Positions 795-8,626 of a stretch of DNA of 8,626 nucleotides are shown here, in pieces. The translations under genes were made by a program, and so were the position numbers. The stretch lies in the IMG/VR virus record IMGVR_UViG_2663762939_000001, positions 1-8,626 of that record; one strand, written 5' to 3'. Every line of letters begins with the position of its first letter. The first letter of the stretch is position 1. Source of the DNA: a virus. Its lineage: Monodnaviria > Loebvirae > Hofneiviricota > Faserviricetes > Tubulavirales > Inoviridae. The notes under the pieces are model-generated. The model worked only from the letters and a program-made list of their open reading frames with translations, did not search any database and was not told the origin of the DNA.

Positions 795-2060
795 TCAAAG
801 CGTGCGAATAATATGAGCGGTCAGCAGAACATACATAATGCGTTGCTCATTACTGTCAGCTTTACTCCTGAAAAGCCAGCCAATCACCGGAATTTTACTG
901 ATAAACGGTACAGAACGGTCAGCATTGCTGGATGATGAATCAATCAGCCCACCAAGTAAGAGCGTCTGGCCATCCTTAATCTGAACTGTTGTCTGTATCT
1001 GACGCTGGTTCGTAATAATATCAGATGCCTGGTCATCGTTGCTGATGGAATCAGCGCGGGTATCAATAGTAAGTACAAGCTGGCCGTTCCCCATAACAAC
1101 AGGCGTCACCTTCAAAGATACGCCAACATCATGACGTTCAATGGTCTGAAACGGATTATTTACCCCGGCAGATTCACCCGTAACTTTACCCGTGATAAAG
1201 GGTACATTTTTACCAACAGAAATATAGCCTGTCTGACCAGACTGGGTAAGAATCCGGGGCGTTGAAATCACCTTAGACCGGGAGTTACTCTGCACCGCAC
1301 GCAGGGATACGGCCAGAACATTACCATCAAAAATGCCAAAAGAGCCGCCGGCAGTCGACAATGCGCTACCCAATGCTGAAGTATTAAAGCCCCCTGCTAC
1401 TTTATGCCCGGATGCAGAACCGGCTGCAAACGACAAATCAACACCATCCGACAGACTGGTTTCAAACATCAGCGACTGAATCAATACTTGGTCACGGGCA
1501 ACATCCACAGAATTGATAAAATCGGACAGAACCGGCAGCAGCTCGTCAGGAGCAGAAACAATCAGCGAGTTATTACCTGGATAATCCACGACATTACCAC
1601 CGCCATTAGAATCAAGATAAATTTTAACCAGTTGCTGAACATCGGACGATCTAACTTTTGTCAGCTTAAAATTTCTGACCGTAAGCGCCACAGGTACTGG
1701 CTGGTAAGATGGCTCAGAAGGAAAAGTATCATAAGACTGGTTATCAGAATCATCGGAACCCGAAACCATCTGCGAAGGTAATTTAGACGGCAAAGAGACT
1801 ACCGCAGGATTGCCAGAAAGCATGACAAACCCGTTAGCATTCAGAACAGACTTAAAGAAATCATCAATATTTGTTGGATTAACATCAGCATTAAATACGG
1901 TTACATTTCCTTTAACATCAGGATTAACAATAACAGGCTTGCCAGTTTTTGAAGAATACCACTGAACAAATGAGCGAACAGATGAATTATTTAAATTAAC
2001 AGTTTCAGCAGAAACGCAGAATGAACAGGCAAATAAAAAAGCAACAATAACAGAGCGCAT
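795..2060 (-). CDS. Secretin, filamentous phage export channel (pIV-like, GspD/PulD secretin family)
   Basis: The C-terminal region (…GGLIDSSSSNADRSVPFISKIPVIGWLFRSKADSNEQ…) resembles a secretin domain. An internal ATG at 2060 gives a signal-peptide-like N-terminus (MRSVIVAFLFACSFCVSA) with AGGAG about 10 nt upstream. The ORF extends to an ATG at 2153, but that start would overlap gI by about 86 nt. Last gene of the Ff-like order. Confidence 0.8.
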   Translation of the reverse strand: MRSVIVAFLFACSFCVSAETVNLNNSSVRSFVQWYSSKTGKPVIVNPDVKGNVTVFNADVNPTNIDDFFKSVLNANGFVMLSGNPAVVSLPSKLPSQMVSGSDDSDNQSYDTFPSEPSYQPVPVALTVRNFKLTKVRSSDVQQLVKIYLDSNGGGNVVDYPGNNSLIVSAPDELLPVLSDFINSVDVARDQVLIQSLMFETSLSDGVDLSFAAGSASGHKVAGGFNTSALGSALSTAGGSFGIFDGNVLAVSLRAVQSNSRSKVISTPRILTQSGQTGYISVGKNVPFITGKVTGESAGVNNPFQTIERHDVGVSLKVTPVVMGNGQLVLTIDTRADSISNDDQASDIITNQRQIQTTVQIKDGQTLLLGGLIDSSSSNADRSVPFISKIPVIGWLFRSKADSNEQRIMYVLLTAHIIRTL

Positions 2061-2067
2061 AATAATA

Positions 2068-3162
2068 TTACTCCTGACAGGTAACAGTCTGTAAATAACG
2101 GCCTTTTCTAATAACAATACGACAGGCATCTTTAATATCAACGAAATAACCATCTTTAATCAAATCAAAATACTGATATTTCATACCTTTAGCATCAACA
2201 AACGTAACGGAAACGTCAAAGCCAAGTTGTGAAAAAGAATTAATAGAAAGTCGGGGTAAGTCACTGGACGAATCAGGCGTTACCGCCCTCGCCTGTTCAG
2301 CATAAGCAGATTTAATAGCTGAGATTTCATCAACATTCTTTCCAGACTGGAGCCAGAAACCAAGCCCAAGCCCCAGCGCCAAAAAAGAAAGCATTAATAT
2401 AAGACGGTTCGATTTGCGAAAATAAATTTTAGTGAGGCGCATATAATAATTAAATCCTCTGTGAACAGAAAATTGACCGTGCGTGATAAATGGTGGTAAA
2501 AGCGAAAATGCGCCATGAGGATAATTATCTGTGAACGCTTGTTTGGTATTGTAAGCAGAATAAAGAGATTTTCCTGTATATATCCATTTATCAACAGTGA
2601 TTGAATTAACATTATCACCATATTTGACAATGCCAAAGTGTACCTTTGGTAAAGAAAATCGAGCCCCTGAAACCAAATTCATAATGGAGCCAACAAAAGG
2701 AATGTTTAATTTATCTGAACGGCGACAATAAACAACATGCTCAGCAAGCGCCAGACGAGCTTGCTTATCCATTATCGAAATATCCTGAATCAAAAATATA
2801 ATATCCCAGCCTAATTTTCTGGCATGTAAAAACCAGTCAATAACAGGTTGTCTGTCTTTATCACCCCATGAGCGGGAATTAAACCAAGTACCACATTCAT
2901 CAAGTACAAGGAGGCCATTACGGGATTCATCGTAAGATGTATTCCCAATACCAATAGCAAGTAAATCATTTAATGAAGGCTTGTCAGGAACGCGAATAAC
3001 GCGCGTTTTTTTCGCATAACGCCCAACCATAGGCATATTATGCAATTTAAGGTCAAGATTAGTGGCAACAGGACAACCCTTAGCAAGTCTTTCCTGTATT
3101 CTGGAAACACTAACAAGTGTCTTGCCTGAGCCTAATTTGCCTGTTACTACATGAACCGCCAT
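2068..3162 (-). CDS. Zot-like assembly ATPase (pI-like, zonula occludens toxin family)
   Basis: N-terminal Walker A motif GKLGSGKT (residues 8-15), a single hydrophobic TM segment (LILMLSFLALGLGLGFWL) and a C-terminal periplasmic-type domain. Size 364 aa and position between gVI and gIV fit pI/Zot. Confidence 0.8.
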   Translation of the reverse strand: MAVHVVTGKLGSGKTLVSVSRIQERLAKGCPVATNLDLKLHNMPMVGRYAKKTRVIRVPDKPSLNDLLAIGIGNTSYDESRNGLLVLDECGTWFNSRSWGDKDRQPVIDWFLHARKLGWDIIFLIQDISIMDKQARLALAEHVVYCRRSDKLNIPFVGSIMNLVSGARFSLPKVHFGIVKYGDNVNSITVDKWIYTGKSLYSAYNTKQAFTDNYPHGAFSLLPPFITHGQFSVHRGFNYYMRLTKIYFRKSNRLILMLSFLALGLGLGFWLQSGKNVDEISAIKSAYAEQARAVTPDSSSDLPRLSINSFSQLGFDVSVTFVDAKGMKYQYFDLIKDGYFVDIKDACRIVIRKGRYLQTVTCQE

Positions 3163-3504
3163 TTAAATCACCCTGTTTGCATAATCAAGAAATTTTTGTT
3201 TTAAATCGAAAACAAAAACACTGATACGAGTAACCATAATAACGTTAACACACGCCTGAAAATGGTCAGGCAATACAGATGCCATTAAATGAGAAAAATC
3301 AGCGGGTAACCCGTTATACATGACCTCAGCAAGATACTGCATTAAAAGCGTAACAGTTGTTGTAATTAGCGCGACCAATGCAACCGCTATTAAACCTGTT
3401 TTGGTTGCAAGCCGAGCTAAAAAACTTGCAACATAGCCAATAAGCAAAGGAACAAGACCAATAAGAAAACGCAACAATGCAGGAATACCTAATAATAAAG
3501 GCAT
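3163..3504 (-). CDS. Minor coat protein, pVI-like (hydrophobic, about 113 aa)
   Basis: Highly hydrophobic protein lying between gIII and gI, as in Ff phages. The ATG at 3504 shares a base with the gIII stop (TGATG) and has GGTGG upstream. A GTG at 3507 is an alternative start. Confidence 0.55.
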   Translation of the reverse strand: MPLLLGIPALLRFLIGLVPLLIGYVASFLARLATKTGLIAVALVALITTTVTLLMQYLAEVMYNGLPADFSHLMASVLPDHFQACVNVIMVTRISVFVFDLKQKFLDYANRVI

Positions 3505-4748
3505 CACTCACCACCTTTACGAAGCAATGAAGTTAAAGAAGTAAAGACATACCAGAACGTAAGGCAATAAAAAACCCATGAAAGAGCATCTTTAATAGTC
3601 AGCAATTTATCGCAACCAATATCAATCTGATAAACCTCTCCGGGAAAAATGATAAAATCAGAACAACCATTACCATTAGGTAAATTGGGCAACATAGCAC
3701 CTTTATTTAAGAAAGCCTCCCATAACGCACCATGAGAATCCTTTGCAATTCCTAATTCAGATTCAGCTAAAGTGGAAGCGCTATCTAATTCAGAATCCCC
3801 CTTCCCATAACGGGAATCACCGCCAGAAGGATCAGCAAAACGTCCGGCTCCGCGAGTAAGGTTATTTATAGCGTCACCAAGACGATTTATATTATTTTTA
3901 GTCTGTTCATCAGCCGACTTTTTATCATCAGATGAGGTGTCTTTTTCTGTTAACTTATCATGAATCTCACTGGCAATTTTAGGTGAAGCACCTTCGATAG
4001 CTGACTGAATATCTCCTTTGGTAATACTTGAGTCATTACCACCGCCAGAACCGCCGCCTGAGTTACCACCGCCTGTATCACCTCCTCCAGTATCACCACC
4101 CCCCGTATCCCCGCCTCCAGTATCACTGCCATCGCCAGCAGGAGAAGAAGGCTTATCTGAAGGATCGGCTACGGTTCCGGTAGGCTTCCATGTCGCAGCA
4201 CAAACAGTGCCATCATTCTGGCAAACAATGACGCCAGTGGCCTCATATTCACAACCGTTATAATAAATATAACGATCACCGTCATAAGAATAGACATTAT
4301 TGAATACACCTTCTTCGGGTGGTTTAGCTTCACAAATCTCTTCAGGCGTAGGCTCGGAAGGTTTTTCATCAGGAATAGATCGTTGAATATCACCTATAAT
4401 ATAAGCGGTTAAAGTCCAGTATTTATCTTTCTGGCCTGGAGAGTCGCTGTAAGTACAAGCGTCAGAAAACACAAGACGGAATTCAGAGTTAGGCCATACT
4501 CCCTCATAAGTTGGTTTAACCTGAGTAAAAACACCCTGAGCACTGTCTTTAGCACCCTGACAAGCAGAAGCCTGCATCGCTGCATCAATATAATAAACAG
4601 TTTGTTTAGCGCCATCTTGGTTGGTTATTTGCTTACTTTCAGCATATGCAGAGCTTTGAAAAGTAGATTTAGTAATGCTTTCCCATGAATCAGCATATGA
4701 AAAAGAAGAAATAAGAATAGCGGAAATGATTAATATATTCCTTTTCAT
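3504..4748 (-). CDS. Adsorption / minor coat protein, pIII-like, with signal peptide and Gly-rich linker
   Basis: Signal-peptide-like N-terminus ([19 protein letters not shown]), Cys-containing N-terminal domains, a (GGGDT)n/GGGS linker at residues ~205-239 and a hydrophobic C-terminal anchor ([15 protein letters not shown]). Follows gVIII as gIII does in Ff phages. Confidence 0.75.
4032..4136 (-). repeat. Tandem 15-nt codon repeat encoding the Gly-rich (GGGDT)x4[12 protein letters not shown] linker inside gIII
   Basis: Direct periodic repeats are visible in the DNA (…ccgcctccagtatcaccacc… units) and in the translation. The plus-strand Pro-rich ORF 4018-4263 is its antisense shadow. Confidence 0.7.
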
Positions 4749-4793: not shown

Positions 4794-5036
4794 TTAAACT
4801 GCTTTGGAAGCGAATTTTTTAAAAATACGAATGGCAAGGCCTGCACCAACCACAGCAACAACGACAGGCCATACTTTACCAATAAGATCATTTGCCTGAG
4901 TCAGCAATGCATCCATTGCCTGACCTGCATAATCAGTCCCGCCTGTAGTTCCATCAGCCGCAAAAGAACTGGCAGAAACAAAAAGAGCTGTTGAAGCTAC
5001 TGCAATTTTAGATTTAACAAAAGACAAAACTTTCAT
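4794..5036 (-). CDS. Major coat protein, pVIII-like
   Basis: 80-aa precursor with a signal peptide (…VSASSFA|ADGTT), an acidic mature N-terminus, a hydrophobic core (VWPVVVAVVGAGLAIRIF) and a basic C-terminus (KKFASKAV). GGAG lies upstream of the ATG at 5036. Confidence 0.8.
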   Translation of the reverse strand: MKVLSFVKSKIAVASTALFVSASSFAADGTTGGTDYAGQAMDALLTQANDLIGKVWPVVVAVVGAGLAIRIFKKFASKAV

Positions 5037-5151: not shown

Positions 5152-5237
5152 TAACGAAAAACCCCCGCAGTAATTGCGCCGAGGCCAAAAGAGATAACAA
5201 TGCCTGACGCTATTAATATTTGTATAACATCAGCCAT
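5151..5237 (-). CDS. Small hydrophobic virion protein, pVII-like (28 aa)
   Basis: Hand translation gives MADVIQILIASGIVISFGLGAITAGVFR. It starts 2 nt after the gV-like stop and is coupled to the next small ORF through a TAATG overlap. Confidence 0.45.
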   Translation of the reverse strand: MADVIQILIASGIVISFGLGAITAGVFR

Positions 5238-5239
5238 AT

Positions 5240-5557
5240 TTAACCTTTTATTTCAGTGATTCCACCATCAGATGAAATGTTATAAGTTACCCCCTCCCTA
5301 CCTTCCATTGACCATACACGAACATAAACGGGGATCTGAACTAACTTTCCGATAAAGCTGTTAGCCTGATTCATTACACCGGAATTCACCAAAGCTTGTG
5401 ACACACGAATAATAATCTGGTCTTGCTTGGTACCACCAAAGCCATCAGGGGTCTCTAAGCCAATACCAATTTCATTATAATAACCCTGCCCATTAATTTT
5501 ATTACGCTGACGAGCACCAAGCATCTTACCTTTCACGAAAAGACCATAATTAGACAT
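5240..5557 (-). CDS. Putative ssDNA-binding protein (gV-like), assigned by position
   Basis: 105-aa protein directly downstream of the replication initiator, with a strong RBS (AGGAGA, 5-nt spacer). The assignment rests on synteny and size, not on a recognised motif. Confidence 0.5.
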   Translation of the reverse strand: MSNYGLFVKGKMLGARQRNKINGQGYYNEIGIGLETPDGFGGTKQDQIIIRVSQALVNSGVMNQANSFIGKLVQIPVYVRVWSMEGREGVTYNISSDGGITEIKG

Positions 5558-5568
5558 ATCACTCTCCT

Positions 5569-6633
5569 TTAGTGCCAGCTACTGGCATGTGAAATACGGT
5601 TGTAATCGAAAATTAAACCTTTCTCATAAACCCATGATGGAATTTTGGCTGGTTTAGCCTCAAGTGTTCTTACTAATGGAACAATATTATTTGAATCAGG
5701 GGATTCACAATAAAAATTAATATCTATCCCAAAAGACAGTAATTCTTTACGATGCCTGTAAAATGTTGGCTTTGGAAGCATTTCTTTCATATTTGCGCCC
5801 TGCTTCCATAACAAATATGTAGACTGTATTTTTCTTGGGAGATTAATTATCTTTTCATCAGTTAATATAGTATTTTGATTCATTTCTATTCTCCCTACAT
5901 AGTCAGAGAATACTTTATTAGGCGTCTCAATATTCCAGTTTTTACCAAGCGTAAGATTCAAATCAATTAATTCGGTTGTTCTTAATGTTAATTCAATACG
6001 TAATTTATCTTTTGACCAATCCAGTAAACCAGCGTTAACAAATTCATCTGCTATCTGGTGCCCTTTTTTTCCAGATGTATGCTCATCATATTTAGAGTAA
6101 AATTTCAGGCTCCAACGACGGGAGTTTTTTCCCAAATAGACCGTTCCCCCTTTGCCACAGGCGCGACCATGACGAGTTTTTGCTTTAAACTCTGCGGCAT
6201 AAAGCCATGCCCGCACATTTTCCAATGTTGATAATGAATACATGTAATTAATATCAACACGGGAAATCTTATATTGCCCTGTCATTACCTGACGATAGGA
6301 CGGAAGGTCATGGGGAATATGAAGTAATGCCAGTATTCTCGCGTAAGCTGTCAATACCAGTCCTTGCAAATCGTCGGAACCAATAACCGAATGTCCCTGA
6401 AGAAATTTTGACGGATTACCATCAATATAAAGATGTGTTGCCCGGCCTTCGCCATCGGATCCAACTGATCTTACTTTCATTGTAGATTCGTACGAACCGC
6501 GAACAGTCAACCGTTTTACTGTTTCCCACTCCACTGCACCATCAGCATCAACGCTGACGACACTACCAGCCGGTAACGGTTGGTGCGTGCAAGGCAGGAT
6601 TCCAGTAAACCAGTCGATCATAAGTAGCCACAC
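5569..6633 (-). CDS. Rolling-circle replication initiation protein (gII / RstA-like)
   Basis: 354-aa protein at the head of the minus-strand module, resembling phage/plasmid replication initiators. The track start at 6633 is GTG; the first ATG is at 6621 (MIDWFTG…), so the exact start is uncertain. Confidence 0.75.
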   Translation of the reverse strand: MWLLMIDWFTGILPCTHQPLPAGSVVSVDADGAVEWETVKRLTVRGSYESTMKVRSVGSDGEGRATHLYIDGNPSKFLQGHSVIGSDDLQGLVLTAYARILALLHIPHDLPSYRQVMTGQYKISRVDINYMYSLSTLENVRAWLYAAEFKAKTRHGRACGKGGTVYLGKNSRRWSLKFYSKYDEHTSGKKGHQIADEFVNAGLLDWSKDKLRIELTLRTTELIDLNLTLGKNWNIETPNKVFSDYVGRIEMNQNTILTDEKIINLPRKIQSTYLLWKQGANMKEMLPKPTFYRHRKELLSFGIDINFYCESPDSNNIVPLVRTLEAKPAKIPSWVYEKGLIFDYNRISHASSWH

Positions 6634-6792
6634 CCATCAAAATATGTGTCAATAGTCATTTGTGAGCAAATTGAGTGGTCACAATGTAATATGCTCAGAT
6701 CTGACAGTCAATACATTTGCAATGTTTAAATTGTCAGAAATGAGCATCAAATCTAACTATTGAAAAACCACTGTTAAGATGGAGCCAAGTAG
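6634..6792. promoter_or_regulatory. Divergent intergenic control region between gII (minus) and the HTH regulator (plus), with operator-like inverted repeats
   Basis: Imperfect inverted repeat 6691-6707 (atgctcagatctgacag) and 6731-6747 (ttgtcagaaatgagcat), 14 of 17 matching, with a perfect 10-bp palindrome tcagatctga at 6695-6704. Also TTGTGA-N13-TCACAA at 6660-6684. A possible leftward promoter is -35 TTGCTC (plus 6664-6669) and -10 CATATT (plus 6641-6646). GGAG at 6781-6784 precedes the regulator ATG. Confidence 0.5.
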
Positions 6793-7239
6793 ATGGGCAA
6801 CAATGAGCATGATGATATGGCGGACAAGCAGAGAGCAGAACGTATCAAAAAGGTAATTCTGGAAAACTCGACTTATGAAGAACTGGCCGAGAAAACCGGT
6901 ATTAGCGTTAGCACACTGGTCAGAATAGCGTCCGGCAAAACTGAGCCTAAATTCAGTGACATAATTCAGATAGCTAAAATTACGGGTGCAGACTTGAACA
7001 CCCTTGCTTATGGCTATGCTATTGATGTTAAAGAAGAAGCTACTGAAAGGAAGTTAATCACTTCCGCAGACGGTTACACTGATGAAGAAACCACTAACGC
7101 CCACAATTTCATTGTGTGGAACATCAGAACACTGAATAAACAAGATATTCTGGCTCTCTCAAGGCAAGTTTCTGCATTAAGTTCATATACTTACAGTACG
7201 AAAATGTTTATGAAAAAAGTAGTGTCAGGCGAAGATTAA
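6793..7239 (+). CDS. HTH (XRE/Cro-C1 type) transcriptional regulator, candidate phage repressor
   Basis: The N-terminal region (…TYEELAEKTGISVSTLVRIASGKTEPKFSDIIQIAKITGADLNTLAYG) resembles a helix-turn-helix XRE domain, followed by a C-terminal extension of about 70 aa. It is transcribed divergently from gII, like RstR in CTXphi. Confidence 0.75.
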   Translation: MGNNEHDDMADKQRAERIKKVILENSTYEELAEKTGISVSTLVRIASGKTEPKFSDIIQIAKITGADLNTLAYGYAIDVKEEATERKLITSADGYTDEETTNAHNFIVWNIRTLNKQDILALSRQVSALSSYTYSTKMFMKKVVSGED

Positions 7240-7249
7240 AGGGTTTAGC

Positions 7250-7296
7250 AGTCTCAGGAATGAGACTAACGTGCAGTATTACCAACACTGCACGTT
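7250..7296 (+). terminator. Two tandem hairpins downstream of the regulator gene (candidate terminator/attenuator)
   Basis: Stem 7250-7256 / 7261-7267 (agtctca / tgagact) with a 4-nt loop, then stem 7268-7277 / 7287-7296 (aacgtgcagt / actgcacgtt) with a 9-nt loop, followed by cTTTATT. Confidence 0.4.
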
Positions 7297-7338
7297 CTTT
7301 ATTGTGTGAATTTTGAACAGTGAAAAAGGATCAAAAGG

Positions 7339-7761
7339 ATGAGTAGAAATAACGAAACAAGCGGCGTTGAACTGGTTGTCGTGGGCGTATTTGCTTTCTG
7401 TCTGGCAGTTGTTGCCTGGCTAATGAAAACTTTCGATGTTGAATGGCAAACAGCACTGGAAACTGCGCCTGGCCTGATAGTCTGGCTGCTTGTTGTCGGT
7501 GCGGGGATCTTTTTCGGGATCAAAATGGAAACTGGCCTTATTCGCTGGGGTGCTCCACTGGCGATCGCCCTTCTGATTCCGGTATTCAAGCCAATTCTTA
7601 AGGAAGCTGCCGGAGTTCGTGAAACGGGTGGGCTGGTTTTCGATGATATGGTTTCGTGGTATGGAACTGGCTGGGGAATGTCTCTGATGTTCTTCGGGAT
7701 TCTTATTGTCGGATATGGCCTGCTTTATTGGTGGCACAGAAGAAATTCATATTACTGGTAA
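7339..7761 (+). CDS. Small integral membrane protein (140 aa, about 4 predicted TM helices), function unknown
   Basis: Four hydrophobic segments (about residues 10-28, 44-62, 69-83, 112-131) and a Trp/Tyr-rich C-terminus. AAGGA lies about 9 nt upstream of the ATG. The overlapping minus-strand ORFs are low-complexity antisense shadows. Confidence 0.65.
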   Translation: MSRNNETSGVELVVVGVFAFCLAVVAWLMKTFDVEWQTALETAPGLIVWLLVVGAGIFFGIKMETGLIRWGAPLAIALLIPVFKPILKEAAGVRETGGLVFDDMVSWYGTGWGMSLMFFGILIVGYGLLYWWHRRNSYYW

Positions 7762-7789
7762 TCAATAAAACGTAGAAGAGAGGAAACAT

Positions 7790-8065
7790 ATGAAACTGAA
7801 TCCTGAGAAATACAATAGAAACATCACCCTGCTATGTCCTGTGTGCGGAAATACAGAGATGGAACACGAGGAAGAGTCTGAAGTCGTCAGATGTGTAGGC
7901 TGCGGGAAAGAATTTACTAATGATGAATTAATCCAAGAAAACGGGGTGAGTATTGACGCCCATGTAGATGAAATAAAAGAAGAGTTAACAAAAGACATTC
8001 AAAAACAGTTTGGTGACATGCTCAAAAAGGCATTTAAGGGAAGTAAGAATATAAGGATCAAATAA
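7790..8065 (+). CDS. Small zinc-ribbon protein (91 aa; CPVCG…CVGCG), function unknown
   Basis: Two CxxC pairs (C16/C19 and C35/C38) form a putative zinc ribbon, followed by a charged helical tail. Strong RBS (AGAGAGGAAACAT-ATG). The stop overlaps the next gene's start (TAATG). Confidence 0.65.
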   Translation: MKLNPEKYNRNITLLCPVCGNTEMEHEEESEVVRCVGCGKEFTNDELIQENGVSIDAHVDEIKEELTKDIQKQFGDMLKKAFKGSKNIRIK

Positions 8066-8544
8066 TGACAACAAGTGATGCCATCGCTTTAGCTGCGCTT
8101 GTAGTATCGATTTACACTATCATATCGTCAGAAATGAAATCGAGAAAAAGCGATAGAGAACAAAGGGTTATAAAGGATGAGCAAGACAGGTTACGTAAGT
8201 TGCTTCTGGAAAAAGAAACAAAGTCAGCAATTAATGAGATGAAAGCTGAGCTTGGTGCTCGCCTCGTAAAAATAGCCAAAAACAACTATAGGCTCAAGAT
8301 ATTTAATAGAGGGAGGGTTGAGGCTAAAAATATAGAGATTCATTTCCCTGATAACGATGGAAATGAATATCTTTCAATGCATGATGTAGAAGATAAATTT
8401 CCATATGAGGTATTACACCCGCAACATGGGATTGAAATTTTAGCGGGAATAAGCTTTGGAAGTAAAACTAAATACCGAATAAAACTCATATGGGATGACA
8501 ATTATAAAAGAAGAAATGAAGAGGAGTTTTTCATTTCTATATAA
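8065..8544 (+). CDS. N-terminally membrane-anchored protein (159 aa) with charged helical linker and beta-rich C-terminal domain, function unknown
   Basis: N-terminal hydrophobic helix (AIALAALVVSIYTIISS), a Lys/Glu-rich predicted coiled region, then a C-terminal domain. AAGGA RBS with 7-nt spacer. Translationally coupled to the zinc-ribbon gene. Confidence 0.65.
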   Translation: MTTSDAIALAALVVSIYTIISSEMKSRKSDREQRVIKDEQDRLRKLLLEKETKSAINEMKAELGARLVKIAKNNYRLKIFNRGRVEAKNIEIHFPDNDGNEYLSMHDVEDKFPYEVLHPQHGIEILAGISFGSKTKYRIKLIWDDNYKRRNEEEFFISI

Positions 8545-8574
8545 ATTGGTTCGCACAATGACGTTATGCTAAAG

Positions 8575-8612
8575 AGGCCGCTGCGGGATTCGATTTTCGC
8601 AGCGGCCTTTTC
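8575..8612 (+). terminator. GC-rich hairpin plus T-tract (candidate intrinsic terminator), core of a longer imperfect palindrome
   Basis: Stem AGGCCGCTGCG (8575-8585) / CGCAGCGGCCT (8598-8608), 12-nt loop, followed by TTTT (8608-8611). The arms extend imperfectly to 8562-8585 / 8598-8621, 21 of 24 matching. Confidence 0.5.
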
Positions 8613-8626
8613 AACATAACGAGTCG

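Follow-up and report, generated by a model that had tools for sequence, protein, structure and literature searches.

Among filamentous phages, ctxAB is the cargo of CTXφ, and Ypfφ and CUS-1 carry open reading frames (ORFs) adjacent to attL, a position next to attP (PMC4266046), while the variable loci of the dif-integrated filamentous prophages of Vibrio are enriched for defence genes (PMC11630473). Elements of the IS1202 family, in turn, target dif and pdif sites (PMC10132070). Here we analysed a stretch of 8,626 nucleotides (nt) of an inovirus (IMG/VR record IMGVR_UViG_2663762939_000001; the whole stretch is called the window below) and focused on two genes at 7790-8544, encoding a zinc-ribbon protein and a membrane-anchored protein (the anchor). 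Comparison with related prophages indicates that 7767-8543 is almost certainly a self-contained two-gene cargo cassette (a 'moron'), seated in a slot that has the last backbone gene on one side and the XerCD attachment site on the other. As to what the pair does, we lean towards defence, and weigh this reading below against the alternatives.

An exchangeable slot next to the attachment site

The cassette was delimited by comparison with prophages that share the phage backbone. In E. coli M19, homology with the window covers 5234-7766, breaks off, and is found again from 8544 onwards at 100% identity; in between, M19 carries genes for a protein with a DpnII/MboI-type restriction endonuclease (REase) domain and for a DUF6953 protein, and it keeps the multi-pass membrane protein gene located just upstream (7339-7761, plus strand; 140 amino acids (aa); phrog_4174, PHROG E-value 1.5e-85). 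A sequence-only reading of the window had proposed that this region was assembled from separately acquired pieces, and the M19 swap bears this out, since the pair is replaced alone and the membrane gene stays. The same slot is occupied by proteins without known function in UTI89 (369 aa) and CAVp367 (363 aa), and by an AbiJ_NTD4+DUF7014 protein in NC101. At least five unrelated cargos replace 7767-8543 precisely in E. coli prophages of the same backbone.

The borders are shared as well. Each cargo allele starts directly after the stop codon of the membrane gene and ends 0-5 nt before an Xer-like site, GGTTCGCACAA-TGACG-TTATGCTAAAG, which is identical behind every allele in the E. coli prophages. 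In the window this site was located by motif scan at 8548-8574 (plus strand), 3 nt past the stop codon of the anchor gene, and the left end of the cassette (7767-7789, plus strand), directly past the last position of M19 homology (7766), holds the ribosome-binding region (agagagg) of the zinc-ribbon gene. In the window itself, just the right border of the cassette is an Xer-like site, the left border being a gene end. Of 5426 complete E. coli genomes, 127 have the membrane gene but just 28 the pair, and the comparison of related genomes, which the sequence-only reading had suggested as a check, accordingly returned a variable insertion at a conserved position and not a set of core genes. On these comparisons the membrane gene is the backbone-associated left border of the slot and lies outside the mobile pair. 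In the second tandem prophage copy of E. coli Combat2C1 the membrane gene is swapped too, besides the pair; this strain (our locus L001) carries two neighbouring copies of one phage with differing cargo. The membrane gene itself has no Pfam, NCBIfam or PADLOC family, belongs to phrog_4174 only, and has a codon bias of its own.

Base composition had first drawn attention to the segment, which had been described as markedly AT-rich next to a membrane gene richer in guanine and cytosine (GC) than the phage core. The contrast between the neighbours holds (36.2% GC for 7790-8544 and 48.2% for the membrane gene), as does the higher GC content of the latter relative to the phage core genes (37.1-43.2%; window, 41.1%), and the A-rich run that had been quoted lies at 7970-8008. 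'Markedly' was, however, an overstatement, because the segment sits at the 6.7th percentile of all 755-bp windows of the stretch and some core stretches are AT-richer (5701-6000, 30.7% GC; 1951-2250, 32.3% GC). GC at codon position 3 (0.40 in the zinc-ribbon gene, 0.32 in the anchor gene) is near or within the core range of 0.22-0.39, and the shortfall is located at position 2 (0.26 and 0.30). When the pair was re-encoded with core codon preferences, 35.7 ± 1.0% GC was expected and 36.4% was observed, so the low GC is due to the Lys/Asn/Ile-rich composition of the two proteins. Low GC as a sign of horizontal origin, as the sequence-only reading had taken it, was therefore rejected. Codon usage told a different story and proved not to be uniform: the synonymous choices of the pair differ from those of the core by a distance of 120.6, against a null of 41.3 ± 9.5 that reached this value in 0 of 2000 simulations. 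The membrane gene lies at a distance of 94.8 from the core, with 48.7% GC observed and 43.6% expected from its amino acids. Across 50-odd loci, in hosts of 38-69% GC, the pair is nearly always lower in GC than its flanks, and all other cargos of this phage slot have 31-36% GC.

These results bear on one alternative, namely that the two genes are ordinary phage genes for regulation, assembly or integration, that no mosaic exists and that AT-richness is a by-product of the amino acids encoded. The re-encoding control predicts the low GC fully and the segment is no extreme outlier in the window, as this alternative expects. Yet at exactly this place unrelated genes are found in sister prophages whose replication, regulation and membrane genes are the same, the pair also occurs in plasmids, islands and a P22-like phage, and its synonymous codon usage is unlike that of the core. 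We consider this explanation extremely improbable. The mosaic is proven by comparative genomics, through the cassette swaps, and not by composition, and on the prophages compared these swaps exclude a core phage function for the pair.

Two small proteins inherited together

The ORFs of the pair, 7790-8065 and 8065-8544 (both on the plus strand), share one base, the TAA stop codon and the ATG start codon being fused as TAATG, which confirms the coupling noticed initially. The first encodes a 91-aa protein of the ECs_2282 family, which matched the NCBIfam model NF047912 (ECs_2282_CxxC) over residues 12-65 with 65.3 bits, the cut-off being 37; RefSeq gives the E. coli orthologues the name of ECs_2282-family putative zinc-binding proteins. 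Its residues 16-38 hold a CxxC...CxxC motif and residues 52-82 an amphipathic helix, and the C-terminal tail, GSKNIRIK, is conserved. The four cysteines (C16, C19, C35 and C38) are invariant among homologues, in keeping with the zinc ribbon read from the sequence at the outset, and so are K86, N87 and I88 in the tail. The AlphaFold2 (AF2) model has a predicted local distance difference test score (pLDDT) of 81, with a poorly ordered tail. PADLOC models were matched at the level of the domain only, PDC-S64 at positions 195-252 (E 4.5e-7) and HEC-08 at positions 239-291 (E 2.8e-4), with further partial matches to the zinc fingers of Cas12f and to PDC-M14A. The protein has no helix-turn-helix (HTH), ribbon-helix-helix (RHH) or AbrB DNA-binding domain, and a literature search on ECs_2282, the RefSeq accessions and PDC-S64 returned nothing on function.

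The second gene encodes a bitopic membrane protein of 159 aa, and the N-terminal hydrophobic helix that had been read as a membrane anchor was found as described. This helix spans residues 3-59, with a transmembrane part at about 6-24 followed by a charged stalk with a conserved LLLEKE motif; residues 63-158 are predicted to form a seven-strand immunoglobulin (Ig)-like beta-sandwich. Judged by the flanking charges, the short N-terminus is outside and the sandwich is cytoplasmic in 41 of 42 homologues. Neither product has a signal peptide or a secretion signal, and in these models both proteins face the cytoplasm, with the anchor tethered to the inner membrane. The anchor has no family cover in Pfam, NCBIfam or PADLOC (no PADLOC match at E <= 1) and is present in PHROGs as an entry without assigned function. 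A PDB structure search returned generic Ig-like sandwiches only; a search of BFVD found three uncharacterised viral membrane proteins at E < 1e-3, which gave no functional lead. Residues 1-65 weakly matched a holin PHROG (E 0.0027). A holin or lysis cassette was ruled out, the match being weak and no lysin gene being present; inoviruses do not lyse their host.

The idea that the pair is a conserved functional core was well borne out across genomes. At 38 of 39 loci from Gamma-, Beta- and Alphaproteobacteria, with 30-99% identity, the anchor gene is immediately preceded by the zinc-ribbon gene, and across the 39 loci the gap between the two is mostly -1 or -4 nt, that is, an overlap of 1 or 4 nt. 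The pairwise identities of the two proteins correlate (r = 0.85; Mantel 0/2000) and dN/dS is 0.03-0.23; judged from these alignments, both genes are under purifying selection and co-diverging. At 50% identity the anchor family has 1276 representatives; among the 150 listed, lengths of 145-162 aa are the rule and the few exceptions are fragments. The zinc-ribbon family is of similar size, its profile gathering 1148 clusters, mostly of 89-93 aa among the 120 listed. Among the carriers of the pair are a second inovirus lineage, whose replication protein is of the GPA type, a P22-like tailed phage, Klebsiella and E. coli plasmids, integrase islands and islands with restriction or Abi genes.

Several further observations concern these carriers. 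An element of at least 10-16 kb, at least 99% identical in Hydrogenophaga, Variovorax, a Comamonadaceae metagenome-assembled genome (MAG) and a MAG labelled Bacteroidetes (loci L028-L033 and L057), carries a 42%-identical version of the pair and is probably a broad-host-range plasmid or an integrative and conjugative element. In E. coli EC5502 (NZ_CP092647.1) the pair is found at up to 16 places of one chromosome, implying, from the sequence, a long tandem prophage array. Two candidates were discarded: a DUF8453-like gene (123-127 aa) as a core component, which is found behind the pair in the plasmid lineage (E. coli, Klebsiella) and its phage derivative but nowhere else, and puvA, the CUS-1 virulence gene, as one of the pair, since the Ypfφ review equates puvA with a virion protein (PMC4266046).

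A probable role in defence and its rivals

The company that the pair keeps outside phages is suggestive of defence. At one such locus its neighbours are a SIR2-STAND NTPase and a type I restriction-modification (R-M) system; at others they are HNH, AIPR and the CBASS genes SMODS+S_4TM, type I R-M with Mrr, an AIPR/mSLOG island, SNF2+DUF4391+methylase+ResIII followed by ArdA and an integrase, or DUF4238 with methylase/Mrr. R-M, Abi, STAND or CBASS genes adjoin the pair in seven of the eight non-phage contexts that are annotated. A survey of the two nearest neighbours at 35 loci returned integrases, resolvases, type I and type III R-M genes, AriA-like and AAA_21 ATPases, and mad3.

Published data lie in the same direction. 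HEC-08, which the zinc ribbon resembles, belongs to the HEPN proteins, has zinc fingers at its C-terminus and showed anti-phage activity in experiments (bioRxiv 10.1101/2024.01.29.577857). Moreover, Table S10 of DefensePredictor lists a plasmid homologue of the anchor, WP_001610303.1 (155 aa), as 'Predicted novel defense gene' with a mean log-odds of 5.9 (PMC13092281), and this protein is 38% identical to the anchor of the window. The same label was given, across 3,000 E. coli strains, to WP_001610302.1 (123 aa; log-odds 5.4) (PMC13092281). Neither accession was found in the DefensePredictor tables of screened units (PMC13092281). Because of the defence neighbours, the AbiJ-like and REase-like alternates in the slot, the likeness of the zinc ribbon to PDC-S64 and HEC-08, the DefensePredictor label and the precedent of the Vibrio loci, defence is the best explanation we can offer, and on this genomic evidence we judge it somewhat probable that the pair is a prophage-borne module directed against phages or other mobile elements.

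Several points weigh against this reading. The tally of defence neighbours is qualitative and has no genome background, and many of the neighbours are plain mobile-element genes, among which defence, addiction and anti-defence genes all sit. The DefensePredictor label is itself a prediction that partly uses the same genomic-context signal. The pair, moreover, is not strictly obligate: in about 15 E. coli genomes, as in CU532-9 (L065, 5017-5901), the slot holds anchor-like and DUF8453-like (123-aa) genes with no zinc-ribbon gene, and at locus L053 a DUF4238 gene precedes the anchor gene in place of the zinc-ribbon gene. Finally, no recognisable enzymatic or pore-forming domain was seen in either protein. 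As for named systems, the two proteins do not match all components of any one defence system in PADLOC-DB v2.0.0. The sensor/effector or toxin/antitoxin pair that the sequence-only reading had given as examples stays conjectural; neither protein matched a known toxin, antitoxin or defence effector in Pfam, NCBIfam, PADLOC or the structure searches.

Two small, overlapping, co-inherited genes with the smaller one upstream are also what one would expect of an addiction module resembling toxin-antitoxin (TA) systems, in which the free anchor would be toxic, the zinc-ribbon protein encoded upstream would neutralise it, and the prophage, plasmid or island carrying both would be stabilised. Such a module would pay, inovirus prophages being easily lost (PMC4266046), and on Klebsiella plasmids the pair adjoins TacAT and ParDE modules. 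The zinc ribbon also weakly matches TIGR03830, the MqsA-type zinc-finger antitoxin family (E 9e-4; 19 bits against a cut-off of 61.8), to which the faint holin likeness of the anchor N-terminus (E 0.0027) can be added. No toxin or antitoxin family was, however, matched above threshold in Pfam, NCBIfam or PADLOC, including those of type II, the zinc-ribbon protein has none of the HTH, RHH or AbrB domains of DNA-binding antitoxins, and the anchor-like alleles that do without a zinc ribbon are hard to square with a lethal toxin, unless a third gene substitutes. We therefore regard addiction as unlikely, with the proviso that TA and defence roles are not mutually exclusive.

The place of the pair would also fit another role, that of a host-fitness or exclusion factor that would stop conjugative DNA or rival filamentous phages from entering at the inner membrane, or alter envelope physiology or virulence, as ctxAB does from the equivalent position in CTXφ. 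Its position beside attP is that of the toxin genes of CTXφ and of the unassigned ORFs of Ypfφ and CUS-1, and a resident Ypfφ partly protects against superinfection (PMC4266046). One of the two products is membrane-bound, and in some islands the pair adjoins ArdA and conjugative-element genes. Nevertheless, in 41 of the 42 homologues the predicted location of the soluble domain is the cytoplasm and not the periplasm, which does not suit a classical entry-exclusion protein; there is no signal peptide or secretion signal; and numerous genomes and elements have the pair but no inovirus. This role too appears improbable.

If the pair does serve in defence, a division of labour can be sketched. The zinc-ribbon protein would be the sensor or regulator, and its ribbon may bind nucleic acid or an invader protein, or the protein may restrain the anchor. 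Contact with the stalk of the anchor, or with the edge of the sandwich, may be made by the amphipathic helix and the invariant basic tail of the zinc-ribbon protein: the helix and the stalk are similar in length and have heptad-like spacing, which suggests a helix-helix contact, and the tail could add a strand to the beta-sandwich. The anchor would be the effector which, once triggered, would oligomerise through its stalk and sandwich and perturb the membrane, leading to abortive infection. The membrane step is the most speculative part, no enzymatic domain being recognisable in either protein. This specific sensor and membrane-effector mechanism is a tentative proposal that we think is rather more apt to be wrong than right.

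Attachment sites, carrier phage and known systems

The window, 8626 bases in all, is one complete unit of a dif-integrating inovirus, with the inovirus gene set in canonical order. On the minus strand lie the genes for the pIV secretin (795-2153; Pfam Secretin, 8.4e-45), the Zot/pI assembly ATPase (2068-3162; Zot, 5.1e-40), a pVI-like protein (3163-3507), pIII (3504-4748; G3P_pilus-bind, 2e-24), the major coat protein (4794-5036), the pV single-stranded DNA (ssDNA)-binding protein (5240-5557; Putative_G5P, 3.3e-51) and the pII replication protein (5569-6633; Phage_CRI, 2.9e-73). Phage_coatGP8 and Inovirus_G7P_2 domains were seen on a prophage identical to the window phage. An HTH_3 repressor-like gene (6793-7239, plus strand) precedes the membrane gene and the pair. 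A stem-loop (7271-7300; acgtgcagt...actgcacgt) followed by a T-rich run lies directly past this repressor gene, which suggests that transcription of the membrane gene and the pair may be separate from that of the repressor gene. Co-transcription of the membrane gene with the pair is assumed from their 28-nt spacing. Between the attachment site and pIV, positions 1-794 (46.9% GC) contain short ORFs only, of which the stretch 249-716 is about 80% identical between phage lineages, and match in position the attR-side ORFs of Ypfφ, to which no function is assigned there.

The phage is a recombinant, as seen when its proteins are set against two prophages. Its structural proteins are about 97-98% identical to those of the CUS-1-like prophage L001, while its pII, pV and HTH proteins are about 95-97% identical to those of a second E. 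coli inovirus lineage (L002), which occurs in ST131, UTI89 and NC101 and whose pIII, pVI, pI and pIV are unrelated to those of the window or just 27% identical. Identical prophages adjoin hipBA and dif in several genomes, and a second chromosomal context was also found. A search for near-identity of the whole window with the GenBank phage collection returned just about 190 bp of pIV, resembling phages IKe and PEar; the phage is known only as a prophage. On a contig binned as 'Candidatus Nanosynbacter' (JARKOR010000214.1, L019), the window phage is matched at about 98% identity in the cargo region and about 88% over the core genes; the contig is most likely a binning contaminant.

Beyond the right border of the slot stands a GC-rich hairpin (8576-8611, plus strand), with a stem of 8576-8585 paired to 8598-8607 and followed by TTTT (RNA fold -38.2 kcal/mol, z -7.4), which is likely the terminator of the cargo operon, judging from its sequence. 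A consensus promoter and terminator scan of 6600-8626 found no plus-strand promoter; the same scan missed both obvious hairpins, including the stem-loop at 7271-7300, owing to limits on loop length (the loop at 8576 is of 12 nt). The hairpin is at the same time the spacer between two inverted Xer-like sites. The second of these is on the minus strand and split by the ends of the window: its first half (TTTCAACATAA followed by cgagtcg) occupies 8609-8626 and continues in 1-15, where the second half (taca followed by TTATGCGCACC, a perfect XerC arm) forms the prophage end at dif. The window therefore starts within the dif central region (tacaTTATGCGCACC) and ends with TTTCAACATAAcgagtcg, and in the tandem prophages of Combat2C1 the window end reads straight into the window start. 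In L001-L003 the prophage end has a perfect dif, adjoining hipA, as in an integrated inovirus. When folded as ssDNA over the circular junction, the two Xer-like sites pair in a long imperfect hairpin (-29.1 kcal/mol, z -6.7), which resembles the CTXφ-type attachment site invoked for Ypfφ (PMC4266046).

The Xer-like site and its hairpin are not confined to phages. As a unit of 72-83 bp they recur with about 93% identity at 475 places on E. coli plasmids (window, 8547-8618; L058, 4001-4071; L059, 4001-4074; L005, 9899-9972). There they close units composed of an inverted dif-like site, an ISNCY/IS1202 transposase and a cargo, so that the Xer-like site ends the cargo of ISNCY-linked plasmid units also. 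Two kinds of cargo were seen in these units: one is an STM4504/AbiJ-like gene, the other a version of the pair with three genes. Plasmid homologues are bounded by inverted Xer-type sites (1078-1105, minus strand, and 4005-4031, plus strand, in L059; likewise in L005 and L007), and E. coli PK5 and a Serratia strain carry a unit of this plasmid type at their chromosomal dif. Judged from these sequences, the phage cargo pool is shared with Xer-site-flanked plasmid units, which suggests that cargo may be exchanged between phages and such units by Xer recombination.

Taken at its fullest, this would describe a new type of anti-phage system with no enzymatic part, built of a zinc-ribbon sensor and an Ig-like single-pass effector, whose cassette is shuffled by XerCD, together with AbiJ-like and other cargos, between dif-integrated filamentous phages and modules with flanking Xer sites on the virulence and resistance plasmids of enterobacteria, forming a shared 'Xer cargo pool' outside Acinetobacter. 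In this complete form the proposal is a doubtful one. Were the pair confirmed in defence, a widespread family with about 1,300 anchor representatives across Proteobacteria would be added to the bacterial immune repertoire, and a pair without a catalytic domain, totalling 250 aa, is attractive for mechanistic and structural work. The cargo slot, with its exact borders, is a feature of the prophages of the CUS-1/Ypfφ type in E. coli and Salmonella, which are found in extraintestinal pathogenic lineages (such as ST131, UTI89 and NC101). Because the contents of this slot are common to IS1202-associated, Xer-site-flanked plasmid units, XerCD-driven movement of genes between phages and plasmids of Enterobacteriaceae is now testable.

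Set beside known systems, the pair resembles type II TA modules in being two small, overlapping, co-inherited genes on mobile elements, but it differs from them in having no match to a known family, no DNA-binding antitoxin domain and alleles without the zinc ribbon. HEC-08 and PDC-S64 are single proteins of 340-360 aa, the former with an N-terminal HEPN nuclease, whereas the zinc ribbon studied here stands alone in a 91-aa protein with a membrane partner. Cap15 of the CBASS systems, a membrane effector of abortive infection, has two transmembrane helices and a beta-barrel. The anchor is like effectors of this type in its N-terminal membrane anchor, its compact all-beta cytoplasmic domain, the lack of an enzymatic domain and its occurrence in defence islands; it is unlike Cap15 in its single transmembrane helix, Ig-like sandwich and zinc-ribbon partner, with no gene for a cyclase or nucleotide signal. 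The PADLOC and PDB searches returned no sequence match and no significant structural match to Cap15-type effectors.

Other parallels concern the locus. As in the pdif modules of Acinetobacter (PMC10132070), the E. coli and Klebsiella plasmid homologues lie between two inverted Xer-like sites, one of which adjoins an ISNCY/IS1202-type transposase, but the host is one of the Enterobacteriaceae and the left border of the window cassette is a gene end. Variable defence-type cargo of filamentous prophages is already known, and the pair is an uncharacterised member of it. With the variable locus of the dif-integrated filamentous prophages of Vibrio (PMC11630473), the window shares a small inovirus, the use of host XerCD and a slot beside the attachment site with unrelated, strain-variable genes, many of them of defence type or without assigned function, here in at least six alleles with exact shared borders. 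It departs from the Vibrio loci in belonging to an enterobacterial lineage, in carrying a cargo pair listed in no defence catalogue, in having the Xer-like site itself as its right border, and in that the same site and cargo are also found on plasmids beside IS1202-family elements.

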